Shown: piece after piece, positions 9,532 to 27,806 of the stretch | How the letters are laid out: each line of letters begins with the position of its first letter | How positions within the stretch are numbered: position 1 is the stretch's first letter | DNA from: Candidatus Latescibacterota bacterium | GTDB taxonomy: Bacteria; Latescibacterota; UBA2968; UBA8231 | Direction: 5' to 3' | DNA length: 64,000 nt | Assembly (NCBI GenBank): GCA_965200315.1 | Contig: OZ241362.1 | Location: forward strand, 288,001-352,000 | Made by a program: the position numbers and the translations under genes | The notes under the pieces: generated by a model | Told to the model about the DNA's origin: nothing | What the model saw: only the letters and a program-made list of their open reading frames with translations | Databases searched by the model: none

Positions 9532-10644
9532 ATGGAGCTTATGGAGCTGCAAAAGGCCGGTTTGCTCTTGAGCGGCGCGATCTACGTGGGCAGCATCCTC
9601 TGGCTGTGGCGCGGCTTGAGCGGGCGGCGGTCCGGCCCGACCCTAGTCAGCAATCAGCCCTCGGTTAGTGCCATCGTCGCTGCGCGCGACGAAGAGGCGA
9701 CCTTGCCGCACTGCTTGGACGCGCTCGCTCGCCAAGACTATCAGGGTGCGTTTGAAGTGATCGTCATAGATGACCGCTCGGGCGACCGAACTTGGGACAT
9801 CATTGCCGCAAAGGCGGCGACTTGGCCGACGCTCAAGGGTGTGCAGGCCAAGTTGGATGGGCGGTTTAAGTGTCCGAAGAAAAGTGCGCTAGCCGAAGGG
9901 ATTGCAGCGAGCAGTGGGGAGATCTTGCTCTTTACCGATGCCGATTGCCGCCCGCCTACGGATTGGGTTCGCTTGATGGTGGCGCACTTTGCGCCGGAGG
10001 TTGGCTTAGTCGCCGGGTACGCGCGGCCCGATCCGGTTTCCGGCGTACTGGCCAAGGTTTTGGCCGTGGATAATATCGGAGTTGGAGCGCTGGGGGCGGG
10101 CAGCTTTGGCATGGGGTATCCGCTGTCTTGTACAGGTCGCAATTTGGGCTACCGTCGCCAAGTGTACGACGAGCTAGGCGGCTTCGAGCAAATTGGACAT
10201 CTGATCGGGGGCGACGATGTGTACTTCATGCGTTTGTTGAGTGCCCAGGGCAGGTGGGCTATAGCGTTTAACCGCCAAGCTGTCGTCCTCTCGCAGCCAC
10301 CACCAGCTAAGCTCGCGGATGCGATCCAGCAGAAGCTGCGGCATGCGGCCAAAGGCGGCCACTACAAAGGCCGCGCATTCTATTTGGCTGTCGGCGTCTA
10401 TTTGTTCCACGGCTTTCTCGCTTGGGGGCTGGTGCAGATGCTCTGGACTCAAAGCTGGGATGGCTGGGTCGCGGGTGTGTGGTTTATGCGCTGGGCCGTT
10501 GACTTTTTGCTGCTCAAGCAAATGGCCGCGCCCGAGGAGCGTGCGCTCCTGCGCTATTTGCCCCTAGTGGAAGTTTTATATATTCCCTATGTGCTAATTT
10601 TTACGGTCGTCGGCCGTTGGGGATGGTTCCGCTGGAAAACCTGA
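9532..10644 (+). CDS. glycosyltransferase family 2, membrane-bound
   Basis: IVAARDEE, IDDRSGD, PKKSAL, FTDADC, GDD motifs; N- and C-terminal TMs. Confidence 0.9.
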   Translation: MELMELQKAGLLLSGAIYVGSILWLWRGLSGRRSGPTLVSNQPSVSAIVAARDEEATLPHCLDALARQDYQGAFEVIVIDDRSGDRTWDIIAAKAATWPTLKGVQAKLDGRFKCPKKSALAEGIAASSGEILLFTDADCRPPTDWVRLMVAHFAPEVGLVAGYARPDPVSGVLAKVLAVDNIGVGALGAGSFGMGYPLSCTGRNLGYRRQVYDELGGFEQIGHLIGGDDVYFMRLLSAQGRWAIAFNRQAVVLSQPPPAKLADAIQQKLRHAAKGGHYKGRAFYLAVGVYLFHGFLAWGLVQMLWTQSWDGWVAGVWFMRWAVDFLLLKQMAAPEERALLRYLPLVEVLYIPYVLIFTVVGRWGWFRWKT

Positions 10645-10657
10645 TAAAGGAGCTGAT

Positions 10658-11725
10658 TTGGCCTATCTAATCACGCCCAAAGCACTGCCGCGCTACGCCC
10701 GGCGCTACGCCCGCGTATTTTCTTGGAAGCGGCTGGTCAATTTTTTCGCCGTCTTGGCCTCTATGGGGCTGTCGTGGATAACCCGCCGGCCCATTGTGTG
10801 GGGGCGTCCTTTCATGCTCATGGTCGAGCCGACCAACTTCTGCAACCTCAAATGCCCCTTGTGTCCGTCGGGCAACGGCGAAATGCGTCGCCCCCGGGGC
10901 ACGATGGGCTTGGGGGATTTCAAGAAGCTGGTTGATGAACTCGGGGACAAAGCCTTTATGATGATGCTGTGGAACCAAGGCGAGCCGTATATCAACAAGT
11001 GCTTCAACCAGATGGTGCGCTACGCCAGCGACCGCGGCATCTTTACCTTCACCAGCACCAACGGCCACTTCGTTCGCAACCCAGAGCAGGCACAGGCCAT
11101 CGTCGAGTCCGGGCTGGATGAGATGATCGTCTCGTTGGACGGGGTCGACCAAGAAACGTACGAACGATATCGGGTCGGCGGCCAGATCGAGCGCGTTTTC
11201 TCTGGAGTCCGCCTGCTGGTCGCAGCCAAAGAGGCGTTAGGGGCGCAGACGCCGCTGATCAACTTGCAATTCATCGTTATGAAGCACAACGAGCGCGATC
11301 TGGCCACGGCCGAAGCACTGGCCAAGGACCTAGGCGTTGACAAGTTCTTGGTCAAAACCGCCCAAGTTTACACATCGGCGGACGCCGAGGAGTTCTTGCC
11401 CGAGACCGAACAGTACAGCCGCTACGAGCACACCGAGGACGAACTGGTGGTCAAGGGGCAGCCCACGCGGGGTTGCAAGGTGCTGTGGTACAGCTCGATG
11501 GTCAATTGGGATGGAGCGGTCGCGCCCTGCTGTTTCGACAAGGACGTCGACTTTGGCATGGGGCAGGCCTTCAGCGGTCGTTCTTTTGACGATATCTGGC
11601 GCAGCCGGGCCTATATGGACTTTCGCCGTCAGGTCCTCGCCGACCGCAATACCTTCGACATGTGTCGCAACTGTTCCGAAGGCTATCGTGGCATGTTCTC
11701 GCTGATCAAGGAAATCAAGGGCTAA
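10658..11725 (+). CDS. radical SAM protein with SPASM/Twitch domain
   Basis: CNLKCPLC motif, QGEP, C-terminal C...GxVxPCC...CRNC. Confidence 0.92.
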   Translation: MAYLITPKALPRYARRYARVFSWKRLVNFFAVLASMGLSWITRRPIVWGRPFMLMVEPTNFCNLKCPLCPSGNGEMRRPRGTMGLGDFKKLVDELGDKAFMMMLWNQGEPYINKCFNQMVRYASDRGIFTFTSTNGHFVRNPEQAQAIVESGLDEMIVSLDGVDQETYERYRVGGQIERVFSGVRLLVAAKEALGAQTPLINLQFIVMKHNERDLATAEALAKDLGVDKFLVKTAQVYTSADAEEFLPETEQYSRYEHTEDELVVKGQPTRGCKVLWYSSMVNWDGAVAPCCFDKDVDFGMGQAFSGRSFDDIWRSRAYMDFRRQVLADRNTFDMCRNCSEGYRGMFSLIKEIKG

Positions 11726-22508: not shown

Positions 22509-22547
22509 GGCGAGATCCTTTGCGAAGATTTGTTATAATAACTAAAA

Positions 22548-22594
22548 GAGTGAAAATGGCCAATGACGCCAGCCAAGTGGCGAATCTGGCCATT
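22548..22594 (+). promoter_or_regulatory. two putative PspF-type upstream activator sites
   Basis: GAGTGAAAATGGCCAAT and GTGGCGAATCTGGCCATT, about 30 nt apart and about 75-120 nt upstream of the sigma-54 site. Confidence 0.5.
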
Positions 22595-22668
22595 GAAATG
22601 TAATGATTTACTCTATATTTTTTTCATAACACATTGGGCTGTAACAAATTATGGGTATTATAAAATTT

Positions 22669-22684
22669 TGGCACGACCCTTGCA
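22669..22684 (+). promoter_or_regulatory. sigma-54 (-24/-12) promoter of the pspA operon
   Basis: TGGCAC-GACCC-TTGCA matches TGGCAC-N5-TTGCW exactly. Confidence 0.9.
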
Positions 22685-22735
22685 AGGTTAGGAACAGTGA
22701 ATGATTAAAATCCACTCAATCAAGGAAGGTGTACG

Positions 22736-23410
22736 ATGGCTAAGGGAGCCTTAGGAAGGATAAGCGATATCCTCAAATCCAATATCAACGAGATGCTCGA
22801 CCGGGCCGAAGAGCCAGACAAGATGATCCGCCAGATGGTGCGAGACATGGAAGAGGCGGTTAGCAAGGCCACGGCCTCGGTAGGGACTGCTGTGGCCAAC
22901 CACAAACGGCTCGAGCGCCAGTTCAACGACAAGCAAAGCCAAGTCGCCGAATGGCAGCGCAAGGCCGAACGGGCGGTGGAAGCGGGTGAAGATGAACTGG
23001 CGCGACGTGCGTTGGAGCGCAAGGCGGTGTTTGCCAAAGCGGCAGAGGATCTGGCTCCAGCCTTAGAGGAGAGTCGGCAGACGGCCGAGCAATTGCGCGA
23101 GCAGCTACGCGAGCTAAAGACTAAGCTCGAAGAAGCGCGGACCCGGCAGGGCACGTTGGTCGCCCGCCACCAAGCCGCCCAAGCCCGTAAGCGTCTGGCT
23201 CAGAGCATTTCCGGGTTGGGTGAGGATGCCTTTTCCAGCTTTGAACGCTTTGAACAGAAAGTCGCAGAGAGCGAGGCAGAGGCGGCCGCGCACGTGGAAG
23301 TTTCAGGCGAGATGGAAAGCATTGATAAAGAGATCCGCCAAATCGAAGTCGATCACAGCGTTGACGATGAATTGAAGGCCCTAAAGGACAAGATGAATAA
23401 AGACAAGTAA
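22736..23410 (+). CDS. pspA: phage shock protein A (PspA/Vipp1/IM30 family)
   Basis: RISDILKSNINEMLDRAEEPDKMIRQMVRDME, WQRKAERAVEAGEDELARRAL, FERFEQKV. Confidence 0.95.
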   Translation: MAKGALGRISDILKSNINEMLDRAEEPDKMIRQMVRDMEEAVSKATASVGTAVANHKRLERQFNDKQSQVAEWQRKAERAVEAGEDELARRALERKAVFAKAAEDLAPALEESRQTAEQLREQLRELKTKLEEARTRQGTLVARHQAAQARKRLAQSISGLGEDAFSSFERFEQKVAESEAEAAAHVEVSGEMESIDKEIRQIEVDHSVDDELKALKDKMNKDK

Positions 23411-23431
23411 TCCTTTGTTCCGCAGCATGTT

Positions 23432-23983
23432 GTGCAATCTGCTGAATTCGAGGAACTAATGGCTGTGACGATGAGACCGCCCGATGCGGCAAAAAGCGAG
23501 GTACGAAGTGCTATGGAAGGGGGATTCAAGCGCCTAGGTGCTCTTTTTCTCAAGGTAATGGCCGTGCCGATGGTGCCGATAGGGCTAGGGTTTATGCTCT
23601 ACGGCCTTTTTCAAATTCTCCATGCCGATGGTCCAGATTCACATTTCGAGTTTTTCGCCATTGGCGTCACCCAGGCCATTTTCGGTAGCTTGCTCTGGAT
23701 ACTGGCCAAAAAGCTCGATGCGGCCGCGCATTTGGTGCGCTACCGACGGCAGCAGAACCGCGTGGTGCGGCTGGCCCAGAAGAGAAATGGCCGCCTGACG
23801 GTGACCGAAACGGCGGCCGATACCGGGCTGACGGTCGAGGAAGCCTCTGAGATTCTCAAGTGCTTGGCCGACGGGGGGTTCGTCGAGGTCGAAATAACCG
23901 ATTCGGGCCTGATCGTCTATCGCTTTCCAGAAGTGCTTTTCGCGCATGAGAAACACTGGAGCCGGGGCGTGGAAAGTGCCTGA
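23432..23983 (+). CDS. membrane protein with 2 TMs and a C-terminal winged-helix-like domain (start may be 23459 or 23471)
   Basis: Two hydrophobic helices then GRLTVTETAADTGLTVEEASEILKCLADGGFVEVEITDSGLIVYRF. Confidence 0.75.
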   Translation: MQSAEFEELMAVTMRPPDAAKSEVRSAMEGGFKRLGALFLKVMAVPMVPIGLGFMLYGLFQILHADGPDSHFEFFAIGVTQAIFGSLLWILAKKLDAAAHLVRYRRQQNRVVRLAQKRNGRLTVTETAADTGLTVEEASEILKCLADGGFVEVEITDSGLIVYRFPEVLFAHEKHWSRGVESA

Positions 23984-24018
23984 GACAAACAGGCTATAGA
24001 TCGGACAGGAGGGAGCAA

Positions 24019-24258
24019 ATGAGTGGGTTTTTACAGGTCGCCATTGGCGTATGTCTCATCATCCTGTGCATTGGATTGGTCAATTGGGGAAACAAGTATT
24101 ATTCGAGCCGCAAGGGACGAGACAAAAAAGCGAAACAAGAAGAGGATCTGATCATCCAACGTCTAGAACGAGTTGAGCGGCGGCTGACCGAGGTGCAGGA
24201 CGTGATGATCACTCTCAGCGAAAAAATCGACCGGCTGGAGGTGAGAGAAAGGGGCTAA
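24019..24258 (+). CDS. small single-TM coiled-coil protein (PspB-like topology)
   Basis: GGAGGGAG RBS; N-terminal TM, basic linker, coiled coil RLERVERRLTEVQDVMITLSEKID. Confidence 0.75.
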   Translation: MSGFLQVAIGVCLIILCIGLVNWGNKYYSSRKGRDKKAKQEEDLIIQRLERVERRLTEVQDVMITLSEKIDRLEVRERG

Positions 24259-24541
24259 ATCATGAACAAGAATAAGGGGGTCGTCTTCGGGGTCTTCGTC
24301 GGTATCGCGTCGTGTGTGCTTTTCTTTTTTGCGGTGGAAAGCCACCTAGGTGCCGTACTTTTGTTGGTTGCCGTGGCGATTTTTGTCGGGACCAAAGGTG
24401 CTGACTACCTCAAGCTCAAAGCGACGGTATCCGAGGACAAGGGCATTGAGCCGGACGAACTGCGAGAGCGGTTGACCGCAGTTGAGCGGCGGCTGACTGA
24501 GGTGCAGGACGTCATGATCGCTCTCAGCGAAAAAATTGACC
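24171..24541 (+). repeat. 62-nt direct repeat (24171-24232 and 24480-24541), 58/62 identical
   Basis: Direct comparison shows 4 substitutions; both copies encode VERRLTEVQDVMIxLSEKID. Confidence 0.95.
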
Positions 24542-24594
24542 ACATGGACGGAACAGGATCTAAGTCTTGGGAGCGCCAAGAACTGCGAGAGTAA
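24262..24594 (+). CDS. small 2-TM coiled-coil protein
   Basis: Two TMs then RLTAVERRLTEVQDVMIALSEKID. Confidence 0.75.
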   Translation: MNKNKGVVFGVFVGIASCVLFFFAVESHLGAVLLLVAVAIFVGTKGADYLKLKATVSEDKGIEPDELRERLTAVERRLTEVQDVMIALSEKIDHMDGTGSKSWERQELRE

Positions 24595-24603
24595 GGCTAG
24601 GCC

Positions 24604-25959
24604 GTGAATTGGTTCGACCGCGCTGTAGAGGCTTGTGAAGGTGCGCGTTGGGCCGAGGCTCTGGAGTGGTGCGAACGCGGCCTAGCGCAGGTGCCCGACG
24701 ACTTGGAACTCCAGCACCGCAAAGGGCTTTGTCTCTTGGGATTGGGAGACGAGCAAGCGGCCATCGCCGCGCTGGAAGCGGCCGCGGCGCGTGGGCATCT
24801 AGAAAGTCACTACCAACTCGGCTTGCTTGCGATGCGCCAAGGGCGGCGGAACGCCCGGTTCCACGAGCGGTCGCTGGCGCACTTTGAGGCCATCGTGTGC
24901 GCGACTGAGGAAGGGCGCGAATATCCAGATCTAGATCGCGTCTTTTTCGCTCTTGGTAGCCAGTATAACGAAGATCCACAGCGCCGTGAGGAAGCCATCC
25001 GCGCGTTCCGCCAAGGATTGGCTATCAACCCGCTTTCCGCGGTTGGCCACAACAGTTTGGGCCAGCTCTTGCTGCAAGGCGGCCAGGTGTTGGGGGCGAT
25101 GGGGGAATTCAAAGTTGCCATCCAGCTCGACCCCAAGCTCAGTCAGCCCTATGCGAATTTGGCCCGTTTGTTTTTTCGCCACGTAAAACCCCCTGAATTA
25201 GAACAAGAATACCAGCACATCTGCGAGGAGTTCGCGCAAAGTGCTCCGCAGGTCCTCGCACGTTTGTCGCTGGAAATGGTCAAATTGGGGAAGGAACAGG
25301 TATACGAGGGATTTTACACGAAGGGGCATCGCATCAAAAACCTGATGGGGATCATCGGCAGCCGCTTGCGAGGGCTAGGACGCAAGGCCGAAGGGGTGCA
25401 ACGGGGGGAATTGAATCGCTTAGGGGGCGAATACGAGGCCCTGTACGACGAATGGGTGGGGTTTTTGGAAGCGATGAAAACAGATAAAATCCATCCAGCA
25501 GGGATCGATTTAGGACACTTGGTGCGTCGGGTAGCCGCTGGATTTGACCGCCAAACTTGGAAATCCGCGATCCAGACGCGGGTACAAGCGGGTGTGCCGC
25601 GCGTGGAGGCCGACGAGCGGATGTTGCGCGAGGCCATTACCAACCTCTGCCTCAACGCTTTGGAAATTCTCGAAGAAAAACGCGGCGGTCAAGTGGTGCT
25701 GGGTGCTGGCTACGACGAGGAGCAGTCGCTGGTCTTTATTGAGGTTGAGGACGATGGGCCAGGCATTGAGGAAGAGCATTTGGAATTGATATTTGAACCT
25801 GGATTTACCACTAGGGAGCGGGGCAATGGCTATGGCTTGAGCATTGCGCGCCGCATTGCTCAAGCCCATCAAGGCGTGTTGCGCGTAAAGAGTAGAAGGG
25901 GACATGGAACCGTTTTTCGGCTCGATCTGCCGCTCAATTTCGCAGGCGGCGAGACCTAG
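24604..25959 (+). CDS. soluble TPR-repeat histidine kinase
   Basis: TPR repeats; H-box GHRIKN; N-box NLCLNA; DDGPGI, IFEPGFTT, GNGYGL; no TM. Confidence 0.88.
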   Translation: MNWFDRAVEACEGARWAEALEWCERGLAQVPDDLELQHRKGLCLLGLGDEQAAIAALEAAAARGHLESHYQLGLLAMRQGRRNARFHERSLAHFEAIVCATEEGREYPDLDRVFFALGSQYNEDPQRREEAIRAFRQGLAINPLSAVGHNSLGQLLLQGGQVLGAMGEFKVAIQLDPKLSQPYANLARLFFRHVKPPELEQEYQHICEEFAQSAPQVLARLSLEMVKLGKEQVYEGFYTKGHRIKNLMGIIGSRLRGLGRKAEGVQRGELNRLGGEYEALYDEWVGFLEAMKTDKIHPAGIDLGHLVRRVAAGFDRQTWKSAIQTRVQAGVPRVEADERMLREAITNLCLNALEILEEKRGGQVVLGAGYDEEQSLVFIEVEDDGPGIEEEHLELIFEPGFTTRERGNGYGLSIARRIAQAHQGVLRVKSRRGHGTVFRLDLPLNFAGGET

Positions 25960-25986
25960 CCTTTCAGCGGTTGAACGAGGATAGAT

Positions 25987-27411
25987 ATGGCAAGCCCAAA
26001 ACAGAAAGCCGTCTTAATCGCCGATGACCAGCAGGAATTGCGCGAGATGTTGTCAGAGAAACTGCGCAGCTTGGGCAAGGAGGTCATCTCGTTTTCCAAT
26101 GGTCAGCGGTTGCTCGGACATCTGACCGCTCGACCGAGGGAAGTCGAACTTGTGGTACTGGATTTAGACTTTGGCGTTGGCCAGCCCAATGGCCTCGAAG
26201 TGCTAAGAGAGATCAAAAAGCACTGGGCCGAGTTGCCGGTTATCATTCTCACGGGCAAGGGAAGCGTTGATTTGGCCGTCGAAGCGGTGCAGGCTGGGGC
26301 GGCGGATTTTATCGAGAAGGACTTATACGTCGAAGACAAGCTCGAAGTAGAAATGGAAAAGGTCGAGCGGATGTTGGCGGTCTTGCGTGAAAACTCCCGA
26401 CTCAAGGCGGAGAATGAGGCCCTAGACCGCGACAACACCTTTTATCGGACCCAGCTAGGCCAGCGCTATAAGATCGTCAGCCGCAGTCCCTTGATTCAAA
26501 ACCTGCTAAAGCAAGTTGAACAGATTGCCTCCATACCGCGACCCGTGCTGATCTGCGGCGAGCGCGGCACTGGCAAAGAGCTGATCGCCGCGGCCTTGCA
26601 CTACGGGAGCAATCGCCGCGATCGGGCCTTTGTTAAGATGAACTGCGCGGTGCTGTCGGATACCCTACTTGAAAGCGAGCTGTTTGGCCACGAGAAAGGG
26701 GCCTTTACGGGCGCGACCGAGAAGCGCCACGGCCGCTTTGAAGCCGCCGATGGCGGCACACTCTTTCTCGACGAGATCAGCAATACTTCACTGGACTTTC
26801 AAAAAAACGTATTGCGCGTCATAGAATACCAAGAATTTGAACGCGCGGGCGGGACGCAGACTATCCACGTTGACGTACGCGTTGTGGCGGCGACCAACGC
26901 AGATCTGGAGCGGGAAATAGCTAGCGGGCAATTCCGTGCCGACCTCTACGACCGCCTGCGGTTTAGCGTACTCCAGCTACCGCCCTTGCGGGAGCGGCCC
27001 GAGGACATCCGGCCCTTGGTTACTTACTTTACTCAGCAGCTATGCGACGAAGTGCCGGCGATTGAACGACGCCTGTTCTCCGAAGGCGTTTTGGTCATGC
27101 TAGAGACCTATGCTTGGCCGGGCAATGTGCGCGAACTCAAATTCGCCGTTGAGCGCGCCCTCTGCGTCGCCCAAGGGGACGAAGTGGGCGTGGAGGACTT
27201 GCCCCCGGAAGTGCGCGGCAGTGGTGGCGTTGCCATTCCTGAGGAGGGCAGTTTCGACGAACAAATCGAGCGCGTTGAGCGAGGCTTGCTCGCTGGCGCC
27301 CTCTCCCGCGTGGGAGGACGGCAGAAAGACGCGGCTCGGCAACTGGGTTTGACCTACGACCGCTTTCGACACCTACTCCGCAAATACCAAATCACCATCT
27401 GTGCCCTCTGA
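25987..27411 (+). CDS. sigma-54 activator: receiver domain + PspF-like AAA+ + HTH
   Basis: REC (IADD, VLDL, LTG, EK); GERGTGKE, GAFTGA, LRVIEY, FRADLYDRL, HTH QKDAARQLGLTYDRFRHLLRKYQI. Confidence 0.92.
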   Translation: MASPKQKAVLIADDQQELREMLSEKLRSLGKEVISFSNGQRLLGHLTARPREVELVVLDLDFGVGQPNGLEVLREIKKHWAELPVIILTGKGSVDLAVEAVQAGAADFIEKDLYVEDKLEVEMEKVERMLAVLRENSRLKAENEALDRDNTFYRTQLGQRYKIVSRSPLIQNLLKQVEQIASIPRPVLICGERGTGKELIAAALHYGSNRRDRAFVKMNCAVLSDTLLESELFGHEKGAFTGATEKRHGRFEAADGGTLFLDEISNTSLDFQKNVLRVIEYQEFERAGGTQTIHVDVRVVAATNADLEREIASGQFRADLYDRLRFSVLQLPPLRERPEDIRPLVTYFTQQLCDEVPAIERRLFSEGVLVMLETYAWPGNVRELKFAVERALCVAQGDEVGVEDLPPEVRGSGGVAIPEEGSFDEQIERVERGLLAGALSRVGGRQKDAARQLGLTYDRFRHLLRKYQITICAL

Positions 27412-27482
27412 GCCGAGTCTTGTTGACAGTGGGAACGCGCCGGGTATATTAACCGCAAGGCTCCCACACGGGCGAGAGGCGC

Positions 27483-27806
27483 ATGGAAAAAGTTTACAAA
27501 GTTGAGACCACACTTTCCCACAGCTTGGCCGAACTCTATGCCGGCCTCGAAGAGGAGTTCGCCAACAAAAGCAGTATCCCCCTCTCGGACATGAACCGCA
27601 CGTTGTTGCAAACGGGCTTGATCCACCACTTGACGATGATGAGCGAGCTGGGGCTGATTGAGCCTGAGAAAGCTGCGAGGCTGTACGCGTTGATTGACCA
27701 AGTAGCAAAGGATACCATACTCTGGGACATCTTGCAGATGGTGCGGACATACTGGCGGGATTGCGGGTCTGGTGGGCCGGGCAGCTCCGGCGGCCTCAAA
27801 GTCTGA
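27483..27806 (+). CDS. hypothetical protein
   Basis: GAGG RBS, upstream TTGACA...TATATT promoter-like site at 27423-27450, host-like codon usage. Confidence 0.7.
   Translation: MEKVYKVETTLSHSLAELYAGLEEEFANKSSIPLSDMNRTLLQTGLIHHLTMMSELGLIEPEKAARLYALIDQVAKDTILWDILQMVRTYWRDCGSGGPGSSGGLKV

Follow-up and report, generated by a model that had tools for sequence, protein, structure and literature searches.

Among sigma-54 activators, PspF is the standard case of a protein without a sensor domain, and its target PspA controls it solely in trans. How, then, is a psp operon switched in which a PspF-like activator carries a receiver and is encoded, together with a histidine kinase, within the operon itself? 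This question is raised by a locus in the genome of Candidatus Latescibacterota bacterium (GenBank assembly GCA_965200315.1), a single contig of 5.36 Mb. The window analyzed here, i.e., the whole stretch of 64 kb from position 288,001 to 352,000 of contig OZ241362.1 (G000:C1:288001-352000 in our numbering), has a G+C content of 58.7% and contains six co-oriented open reading frames (ORFs) on the plus strand between positions 22736 and 27411, which encode PspA, three proteins designated O2, O3, and O4, a histidine kinase, and the activator (Table 1). The intergenic gaps along this row are 21, 35, 3, 9, and 27 nt. An earlier prediction made from the sequence alone (the original prediction) had described the same genes in the same order, and all six ORFs were recovered at the positions it gave. 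It had also read the locus as a sigma-54/PspF-type output joined to a kinase-receiver input, which is supported by the linkage of the genes, by the trees of the AAA+ domain, and by the absence of PspB and PspC from the genome. We put the probability at roughly 70% that the locus is a self-contained sigma-54 psp operon switched by a dedicated two-component pair and not by trans-inhibition of PspF by PspA. The observations behind this reading are the intact catalytic motifs of the pair, the co-conservation of the genes, the conserved promoter and upstream dyads, an AAA+ domain that is sister to that of PspF, and the loss of the PspA-docking patch.

The activator combines a receiver (Pfam Response_reg, E-value 9.8e-20, residues 9-114) with a sigma-54 activator domain (Sigma54_activat, PF00158, 2.4e-64), an AAA_lid_14 domain, and a C-terminal helix-turn-helix (HTH) of the HTH_8 family (1.4e-5), which is closely like that of PspF. 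In 11/11 orthologues, the residues of the GAFTGA motif, the Walker A and B motifs, and the arginine fingers match E. coli PspF exactly and characterize the protein as a bacterial enhancer-binding protein. In the receiver, residues DD13-14, D59, T89, and K111 are invariant or nearly so, Asp59 being present in 20 of 20 sequences, which is the signature of a response regulator. PspF is defined by the lack of an N-terminal regulatory domain, whereas the activator possesses an intact receiver at this place. In a structure model of the activator (pLDDT 83.8), a single helix formed by residues 115-160 joins the receiver to the AAA+ domain.

The original prediction had proposed a phylogeny of the AAA+ domain as a check, and in the resulting trees the domain falls with PspF, as its sister. 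The trees, all of them unrooted, sampled E. coli, the paralogues of the genome itself, and 117 cluster representatives. In an IQ-TREE analysis of 24 rows, the activator and four orthologues were sister to E. coli PspF with support of 100/98, and 12 other E. coli PF00158 loci as well as six paralogues from the same genome were placed outside this clade. A FastTree analysis of 141 rows yielded a clade of 32 rows with support of 100, composed of eight short PspF-type rows and a group of 24 rows to which the Latescibacterota clade belongs (the REC group), and in a quick IQ-TREE run with 48 rows the corresponding clade comprised 26 rows, 19 of them from the REC group (SH-aLRT 99). Among the E. coli rows, pspF alone was checked against the annotation; the names of the others, including zraR, are presumed from their map positions. 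A Pfam receiver was detected at E ≤ 1e-5 in 9 of the 13 longer representatives (about 450-490 aa) of the REC group that were scanned. The NCBIfam model for the PspF equivalog, TIGR02974, was the top model for the activator, to which it assigned 358.7 bits as a whole and 360.7 bits when restricted to residues 160-474; both values lie below the cut-off of 443.55 bits, which was exceeded by the controls, namely the short relative P0155 with 497 bits and E. coli PspF with 541 bits. Judged by its sequence, the activator is a sister lineage of PspF and not a PspF equivalog in the curated sense. A short PspF of the classical clade is absent from the genome, whose one short activator grouped elsewhere in the trees with 141 and 48 rows. 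At G000:C1:3904146-3904644, a Sigma54_activat domain is split over two adjacent reading frames (profile positions 2-85 and 83-167), which may reflect a frameshift in an activator gene or a fault of the assembly.

The gene upstream of the activator gene encodes a kinase with matches to several Pfam families of tetratricopeptide repeats (TPR) and to HATPase_c (4.9e-23). His242 and the residues of the N, G1, F, and G2 boxes are invariant in 21/21 aligned kinases, one Myxococcota-type kinase included, and in this alignment conservation is also good over the TPR part between about residues 60 and 215. The HATPase_c domain and the conserved histidine in the dimerization helix identify the protein as a histidine kinase, and its motif GHRIKNLMG resembles an H-box by eye. 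Hydropathy analysis revealed transmembrane (TM) segments neither in the kinase nor in the activator or PspA.

To what extent the pair belongs to pspA can be judged from 60 loci found by an O2-alignment scan, which derive from metagenome-assembled genomes (MAGs) mostly labeled Latescibacterota and in a few cases Gemmatimonadota or Planctomycetota. pspA was present in 58 of these loci, and kinase and activator in 57, so that the linkage in relatives, which the original prediction had named as a test, holds. Three of the incomplete loci are explained by contig ends, as L034 starts inside O2 and L053 and L060 end too early. The remaining one, L082, contains an O2 relative in an unrelated context with the rest of the system absent. 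Among genomes of the same genus, 23 of 24 contain an orthologue of the kinase (68-94% identity); outside this family, in two families of the class, the count is 12 of 16 genomes, at 45-47% identity. Two layouts can be distinguished: 28 loci are compact, as in the window, and 31 are extended by genes for a small TM protein, an extracytoplasmic function (ECF) sigma factor, a membrane protein, and an SPFH/Band 7 protein, which are inserted between the small genes and the kinase gene. For the gene preceding the Band 7 gene in L017, the label 'NfeD-like' was dropped, as Pfam gave no match.

The pattern TGGCAC-N5-TTGCW is matched exactly at a single place in the window, by TGGCACGACCCTTGCA upstream of pspA (0.06 matches expected), which confirms the consensus sigma-54 promoter named in the original prediction. 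At least one exact match occurred in 6 of 100 shuffled windows, and the pattern with one mismatch allowed was uninformative (1 found vs. 2.92 expected in the window). The element has the -24 GG and the -12 GC at the correct spacing, and the genome contains one copy of rpoN, which together define a sigma-54 promoter. GG[CT]A[CT]-N5-TTGC with variable spacer bases was found upstream of pspA in 59/59 regions, and a stricter pattern recovered the element in 43 of 58. Farther upstream lie two dyads of 15 bp each, TGGCCAATGACGCCA and TGGCGAATCTGGCCA. With respect to the promoter GG, a dyad of the form TGG[CT]-N7-[AG]CCA is located at -113 to -127 in the window and in each of the 27 compact loci with pspA, and in all of them the dyads are paired at a distance of 21-22 bp. 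The stretch between the dyads and the promoter has a G+C content of 22% compared to 58.7% in the window (median of 28% over 58 related upstream regions) and is likely a DNA-bending region. Among 23 sigma-54-like sites in the genome, only the psp promoter has such dyads within 200 bp upstream, which points to a one-operon regulon; as far as such sites reveal, the regulon of the activator appears to be a single operon. Internal sigma-54-like sites were absent from the operon in 27/27 compact loci. The purine-rich stretch AAGGAAGG before the ATG of pspA is read as a putative ribosome-binding site.

Table 1. Features of the psp locus; positions are those of the 64-kb window.
Feature	Position	Strand	Basis
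Dyad 1, TGGCCAATGACGCCA, proposed activator-binding site (upstream activating sequence, UAS)	22557..22571	+	inverted-repeat search
Dyad 2, TGGCGAATCTGGCCA, 21 bp after dyad 1	22578..22592	+	inverted-repeat search
A+T-rich spacer between dyads and promoter, 76 nt	22593..22668	+	22% G+C
Sigma-54 type -24/-12 promoter, TGGCACGACCCTTGCA	22669..22684	+	TGGCAC-N5-TTGCW
pspA (224 aa), PspA/IM30 membrane-stress effector	22736..23410	+	Pfam PF04012 PspA_IM30
O2 (183 aa), two TM helices and C-terminal cytoplasmic winged helix (model)	23432..23983	+	
O3 (79 aa), N-terminal TM helix and charged coiled-coil tail	24019..24258	+	
O4 (110 aa), O3 paralogue with longer hydrophobic N-terminus	24262..24594	+	
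Soluble histidine kinase (451 aa): TPR sensor (about 1-215), dimerization helix with His242, catalytic ATP-binding domain	24604..25959	+	
REC-AAA+-HTH_8 sigma-54 activator (474 aa)	25987..27411	+	Pfam, AAA+ trees

Some further elements were noted around the promoter. At 22685-22657 and 22563-22535 in the region 22509-22735, two sigma-70-like sites on the minus strand coincide in part with the sigma-54 promoter and the dyads. The divergent gene for a sodium:solute symporter could be transcribed from them, and because of the overlap, binding of the activator might also affect this gene. In 7 of 29 extended loci (L052, L054, L059, L062, L063, L074, and L081; approximate positions 10340-10750), a second sigma-54-like element is located just after O2, where it might act as an internal promoter from which the small genes, the Band 7 gene, and the regulators are transcribed. 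The pspF-pspA intergenic region of E. coli (L083:3919-3947) contains AATTCGCCA and AATTCGCTA, 20 nt apart and 74-94 nt before the promoter GG, which may be the contact bases of E. coli PspF. The reverse complement of dyad 2 of the window contains ATTCGCCA, a half-site shared with the E. coli region; this likeness is mentioned in passing only.

The association of kinase, activator, and pspA is not restricted to the Latescibacterota. With P0148 (476 aa), a member of the REC group, as query against metagenome contigs, 80 loci were found, 36 of them on contigs longer than 6 kb. On 32 of these 36 contigs the kinase, the REC activator, and pspA are adjacent, in a gene order that differs from that of the window. 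A pspA gene follows the activator gene immediately or closely in 34 of the 36, and an upstream kinase that aligns to the window kinase from residue 91-112 or so up to residue 448 with 29-35% identity is likewise present in 34. The four exceptions are contigs that terminate beside the activator gene, on the side of the missing gene. Since the alignment begins at about residue 91, part of the sensor is shared, too. The next gene usually encodes an ECF sigma factor. In L116, the gene for a kinase of 614 aa with TPRs and HATPase_c overlaps the start of the activator gene, and pspA begins 16 nt past the activator stop codon. The sources of the P0148 family are named Kofleriaceae, Myxococcales, Myxococcota, or 'Deltaproteobacteria bacterium' MAGs, and the automatic annotation of the JGI calls several of its members 'psp operon transcriptional activator PspF'. 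The trio of TPR kinase, REC-PspF-like activator, and pspA occurs, as these gene neighborhoods indicate, in at least two phyla, and its presence on contigs with Myxococcota-labeled proteins is a new finding. Directly 5′ of the kinase gene of L116 (L116:4339-6139) lie two genes for membrane proteins without a Pfam match that have the C-terminal motif HKVAGPL...MR.GRL in common, and the operon seems to extend further upstream there.

The first gene of the operon encodes a member of the PspA/IM30 family (PF04012, 161.1 bits vs. cut-off 33.9, E-value 4e-47, residues 6-219) with 33% identity to E. coli PspA. TIGR02977, the NCBIfam model for the PspA equivalog, was the top-scoring model, with 159.6 bits below its cut-off of 242.95; the NCBIfam LiaH model gave 100 bits at a cut-off of 380. 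PspB and PspC (PF06667, PF04024) gave no match at E ≤ 0.1 in the entire genome, and control genomes responded, so that the lack of a recognizable pspC stated in the original prediction extends to the whole genome. In hydropathy analysis, O2 has TM segments at residues 35-63 and 73-92, O3 at residues 1-26, and O4 a hydrophobic stretch at residues 4-50. O2 has no match in Pfam. In its AlphaFold2 model (pLDDT 78), a winged helix comes after two long helices, and for this model Foldseek returned nothing at E ≤ 0.001 and only generic winged helices with E-values from 2e-3 to 2e-2. O2 was detected in 101 of 168 genomes of the phylum, namely in three families of one class (49/75, 30/31, and 21/22 genomes), and in none of the 39 genomes of the other eleven families. 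In five extended-type loci checked, the start of O2 overlaps the stop of pspA. We propose that O2 is a membrane partner of PspA. The sole O2 relative found outside the system (L082:9977-10510, from a MAG labeled Gemmatimonadales) is surrounded by genes for a GMC oxidoreductase, a sugar-phosphate isomerase-like protein, and a gluconate dehydrogenase subunit. O3 and O4 have the tail motif ERRLTEVQDVMI.LSEKID in common, and 0 to 3 copies of such small genes were detected per related locus. An identity of the small proteins with PspB was rejected, as Pfam PspB did not match any of nine O3/O4-type proteins at E ≤ 10 and recognized the E. coli PspB control with 1e-32; for this reason, 'PspB-like' refers to the shape of O3 only.

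The genome encodes three PspA paralogues in different contexts, that of the window included. The second (G000:C1:378594-379280, in L002; Pfam 2.5e-43) is located about 26 kb past the window end; upstream of it lie genes for a CesT_Tir_1 protein (8.4e-45) and for a protein with a DnaJ domain, and downstream a flavin amine oxidase-like gene. CesT_Tir is listed among the neighbors of PspA in PMC11237479. The third, more divergent paralogue (G000:C1:1130041-1130667, in L003; Pfam 4.5e-26) adjoins a gene for a fatty-acid desaturase on the opposite strand. Downstream of the operon, an ORF of 107 aa without a Pfam family (27483-27806) is preceded by a sigma-70-like site (27423-27450) and is kept together with genes for an IscU-like protein and a superoxide dismutase in most loci of the compact type.

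With these elements at hand, other explanations of the locus have to be weighed. PspA might still bind and inhibit the activator as in E. coli, with the receiver adding a second input. The AAA+ domain is the closest relative of that of classical PspF, and the N-terminus of PspA resembles that of E. coli PspA, as this explanation would have it. In E. coli PspF, PspA docks to a YLW patch formed by Y51, L52, and W56, and according to PMC3791423 a change at any of these residues escapes inhibition by PspA, Tyr51 being named the main docking residue. The corresponding residues of the window activator are Y, G, and R. Position 52 is Gly in 11/11 orthologues and position 56 is never Trp. The pattern (Y/F)L..W occurs in 8/8 short PspF rows, whereas in the REC group Trp is found in 0/24 and Leu in 3/24 rows. 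This split suggests two alternative control modes. The alignments show that the activator has lost the PspA-docking patch with respect to Leu52 and Trp56. Tyr51, which is kept in 9 of 11 orthologues, speaks for a remaining link to PspA and makes some direct contact possible. On balance, such dual control is unlikely.

Two further explanations leave the docking patch aside. The first of them regards kinase and activator as passengers that control another sigma-54 promoter, with pspA driven by a different activator. As candidates for such roles, the genome has 22 further sigma-54-like sites and about seven further full-length activators of the sigma-54 type. Against this stand the co-occurrence of the pair with pspA in two gene orders and two phyla, the absence of the dyads from all other sigma-54-like sites of the genome, and the close resemblance of the C-terminal HTH of the activator to that of PspF. 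We regard this explanation as highly improbable. Alternatively, the locus might be a constitutive or developmental module for membrane remodeling, in which PspA forms an ESCRT-III-like polymer, O2 acts as winged-helix adaptor, and the pair reads a metabolic or host cue. Such a function would fit the presence of three PspA paralogues in different contexts, the SPFH/Band 7 protein and the ECF sigma factor of the extended variant, and a fold match of O2 to a human ESCRT-II winged helix (rmsd 1.5 over 60 columns). This match is weak (E-value 6e-3) and stands among many ordinary DNA-binding winged helices, and the nearest characterized relatives of PspA and of the activator serve the envelope stress response; we consider the module explanation quite improbable.

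Several observations weigh against control by the two-component pair itself. The Pfam family HisKA did not match the kinase at E ≤ 0.01, so that the assignment of the His box relies on the alignment. In the extended loci the dyads are degenerate: with a relaxed pattern, at least one was found in 25/31 loci, two in 9/31, and none in 6/31. A sigma-70-like site that could be a source of basal kinase and activator was not found just upstream of the kinase gene. Furthermore, a consensus sigma-54 site was absent near the genes of 13 Myxococcota-type loci; 10 of them had no site with at least 9 of 11 consensus positions and three had one weak, unconserved site each. In L116, no sigma-54 site was seen on reading the stretches upstream of the first operon gene and before the ECF gene. 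Finally, two contigs from RNA libraries extend upstream of the predicted transcriptional start, and contigs of this kind reveal neither a start nor a strand nor whether there is one single transcript. They derive from four metatranscriptome runs of one study, which contained 61-85% of the sampled words; runs X5-X10, with only 5-6%, are not evidence. In all four runs, contigs spanned pspA through the kinase gene, and in one of them the contig continued to position 26621 inside the activator gene. In 4/4 runs the contigs were interrupted between the operon and the divergent transporter gene, and in three of four they restarted at about 27462-27481.

Returning to the two-component switch, the following mechanism can be proposed. 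A change of the membrane or of the status of PspA would cause the soluble TPR kinase to autophosphorylate on His242, and the phosphate would be transferred to Asp59 of the activator receiver. In the off state, the AAA+ domain might be held inactive via the long helical linker and be released by phosphorylation. The released AAA+ domains would form a ring on the two upstream dyads, to which the activator presumably binds, and open the sigma-54 promoter at 22669. The transcript would encode PspA, its putative membrane partners O2, O3, and O4, and also the kinase and the activator. Because the latter two lie inside their own operon, induction would amplify the switch; this positive feedback is deduced from the operon layout and from the RNA-library contigs that bridge the genes. 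As to the signal, we can offer a guess, with chances well below even for either version: the TPR domain might sense free PspA, or it might sense the cytoplasmic parts of O2, O3, and O4. A complex prediction of kinase residues 1-215 with PspA, run without controls, gave scores of 0.00 and 0.07 compared to a mark of 0.32.

More tentatively, the two types of PspF might be sister branches with different modes of control: the short PspF inhibited in trans by PspA via the Leu/Trp patch, and the REC-PspF, associated with pspA in at least two phyla, under cis control through phosphorylation by a conserved cytoplasmic TPR kinase which senses the assembly state of PspA, an ESCRT-III-like polymer, with O2 as winged-helix membrane adaptor of PspA. 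If this were true, the sensor-less textbook PspF would have arisen as one derivative of an older Psp switch of the two-component type. A PspF sister lineage that has a receiver, lacks the docking residues, and occurs with pspA and a soluble kinase in two distant phyla provides a natural contrast and offers a comparison for the interchange of cis and trans control of AAA+ activators. It extends the range of known Psp regulation past the types Psp, Lia, and ClgR, and the locus represents a compact, probably orthogonal sigma-54 switch whose input is open to study in E. coli.

Descriptions of a receiver-bearing PspF relative or of a TPR kinase in a pspA operon were not found in the available parts of PMC9239133, PMC11237479, PMC4641369, and PMC3162934; the supplements and the web application of PMC11237479 could hold such contexts. 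The Psp survey PMC11237479 states that PspF and two-component genes were excluded from its dedicated searches, and the other Psp survey, PMC9239133, apparently left them out as well. PspF is treated as a protein without signal domain in a comparative sigma-54 study (PMC3162934) and in the sigma-54 regulome of Desulfovibrio (PMC4641369). The extended variant of the sister families, not the window, has Band 7 and ECF genes and in this respect resembles published contexts of PspA with SPFH/Band 7 proteins, which, in the sections at hand (PMC11237479, PMC9239133), lack a kinase/REC-PspF pair.

Compared to the enterobacterial PspF/pspABCDE system of E. coli and Yersinia, the locus has in common a sigma-54 promoter with upstream activator sites before pspA, AAA+ and HTH domains nearest to those of PspF, and a regulon of apparently one operon. 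It differs in the intact receiver and the helical linker of the activator, which lacks Leu52 and Trp56 and scores below the NCBIfam cut-off, in the position of the activator gene inside the operon instead of divergent to it, in the presence of a soluble TPR kinase, and in the absence of PspB and PspC from the genome. In ZraPSR, a histidine kinase and a REC-AAA+-HTH activator drive the sigma-54 promoter of an envelope-stress effector, which is the same combination as here; there, however, the sensor ZraS resides in the membrane and ZraP in the periplasm. In all three trees, the presumed zraR locus of E. coli, named by its map position, lies outside the PspF clade. Activators of the NtrC1/DctD type have a one-helix joint between receiver and AAA+ domain, and their unphosphorylated receiver dimer holds the ATPase off. 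The predicted single long helix 115-160 of the activator is similar to this joint in shape, as seen in a single-chain model. Lia-type systems act with the housekeeping sigma factor. LiaFSR-LiaIH of Bacillus subtilis and other surveyed pspA operons share with the locus the two-component control of a PspA homologue with small membrane partners and a possible autoregulation, and in the available parts of the surveys the two-component-linked pspA operons have a membrane kinase and a receiver-HTH regulator (PMC11237479, PMC9239133). In contrast to these Lia-type systems, the kinase of the operon described here is soluble and its output is a sigma-54 AAA+ activator.

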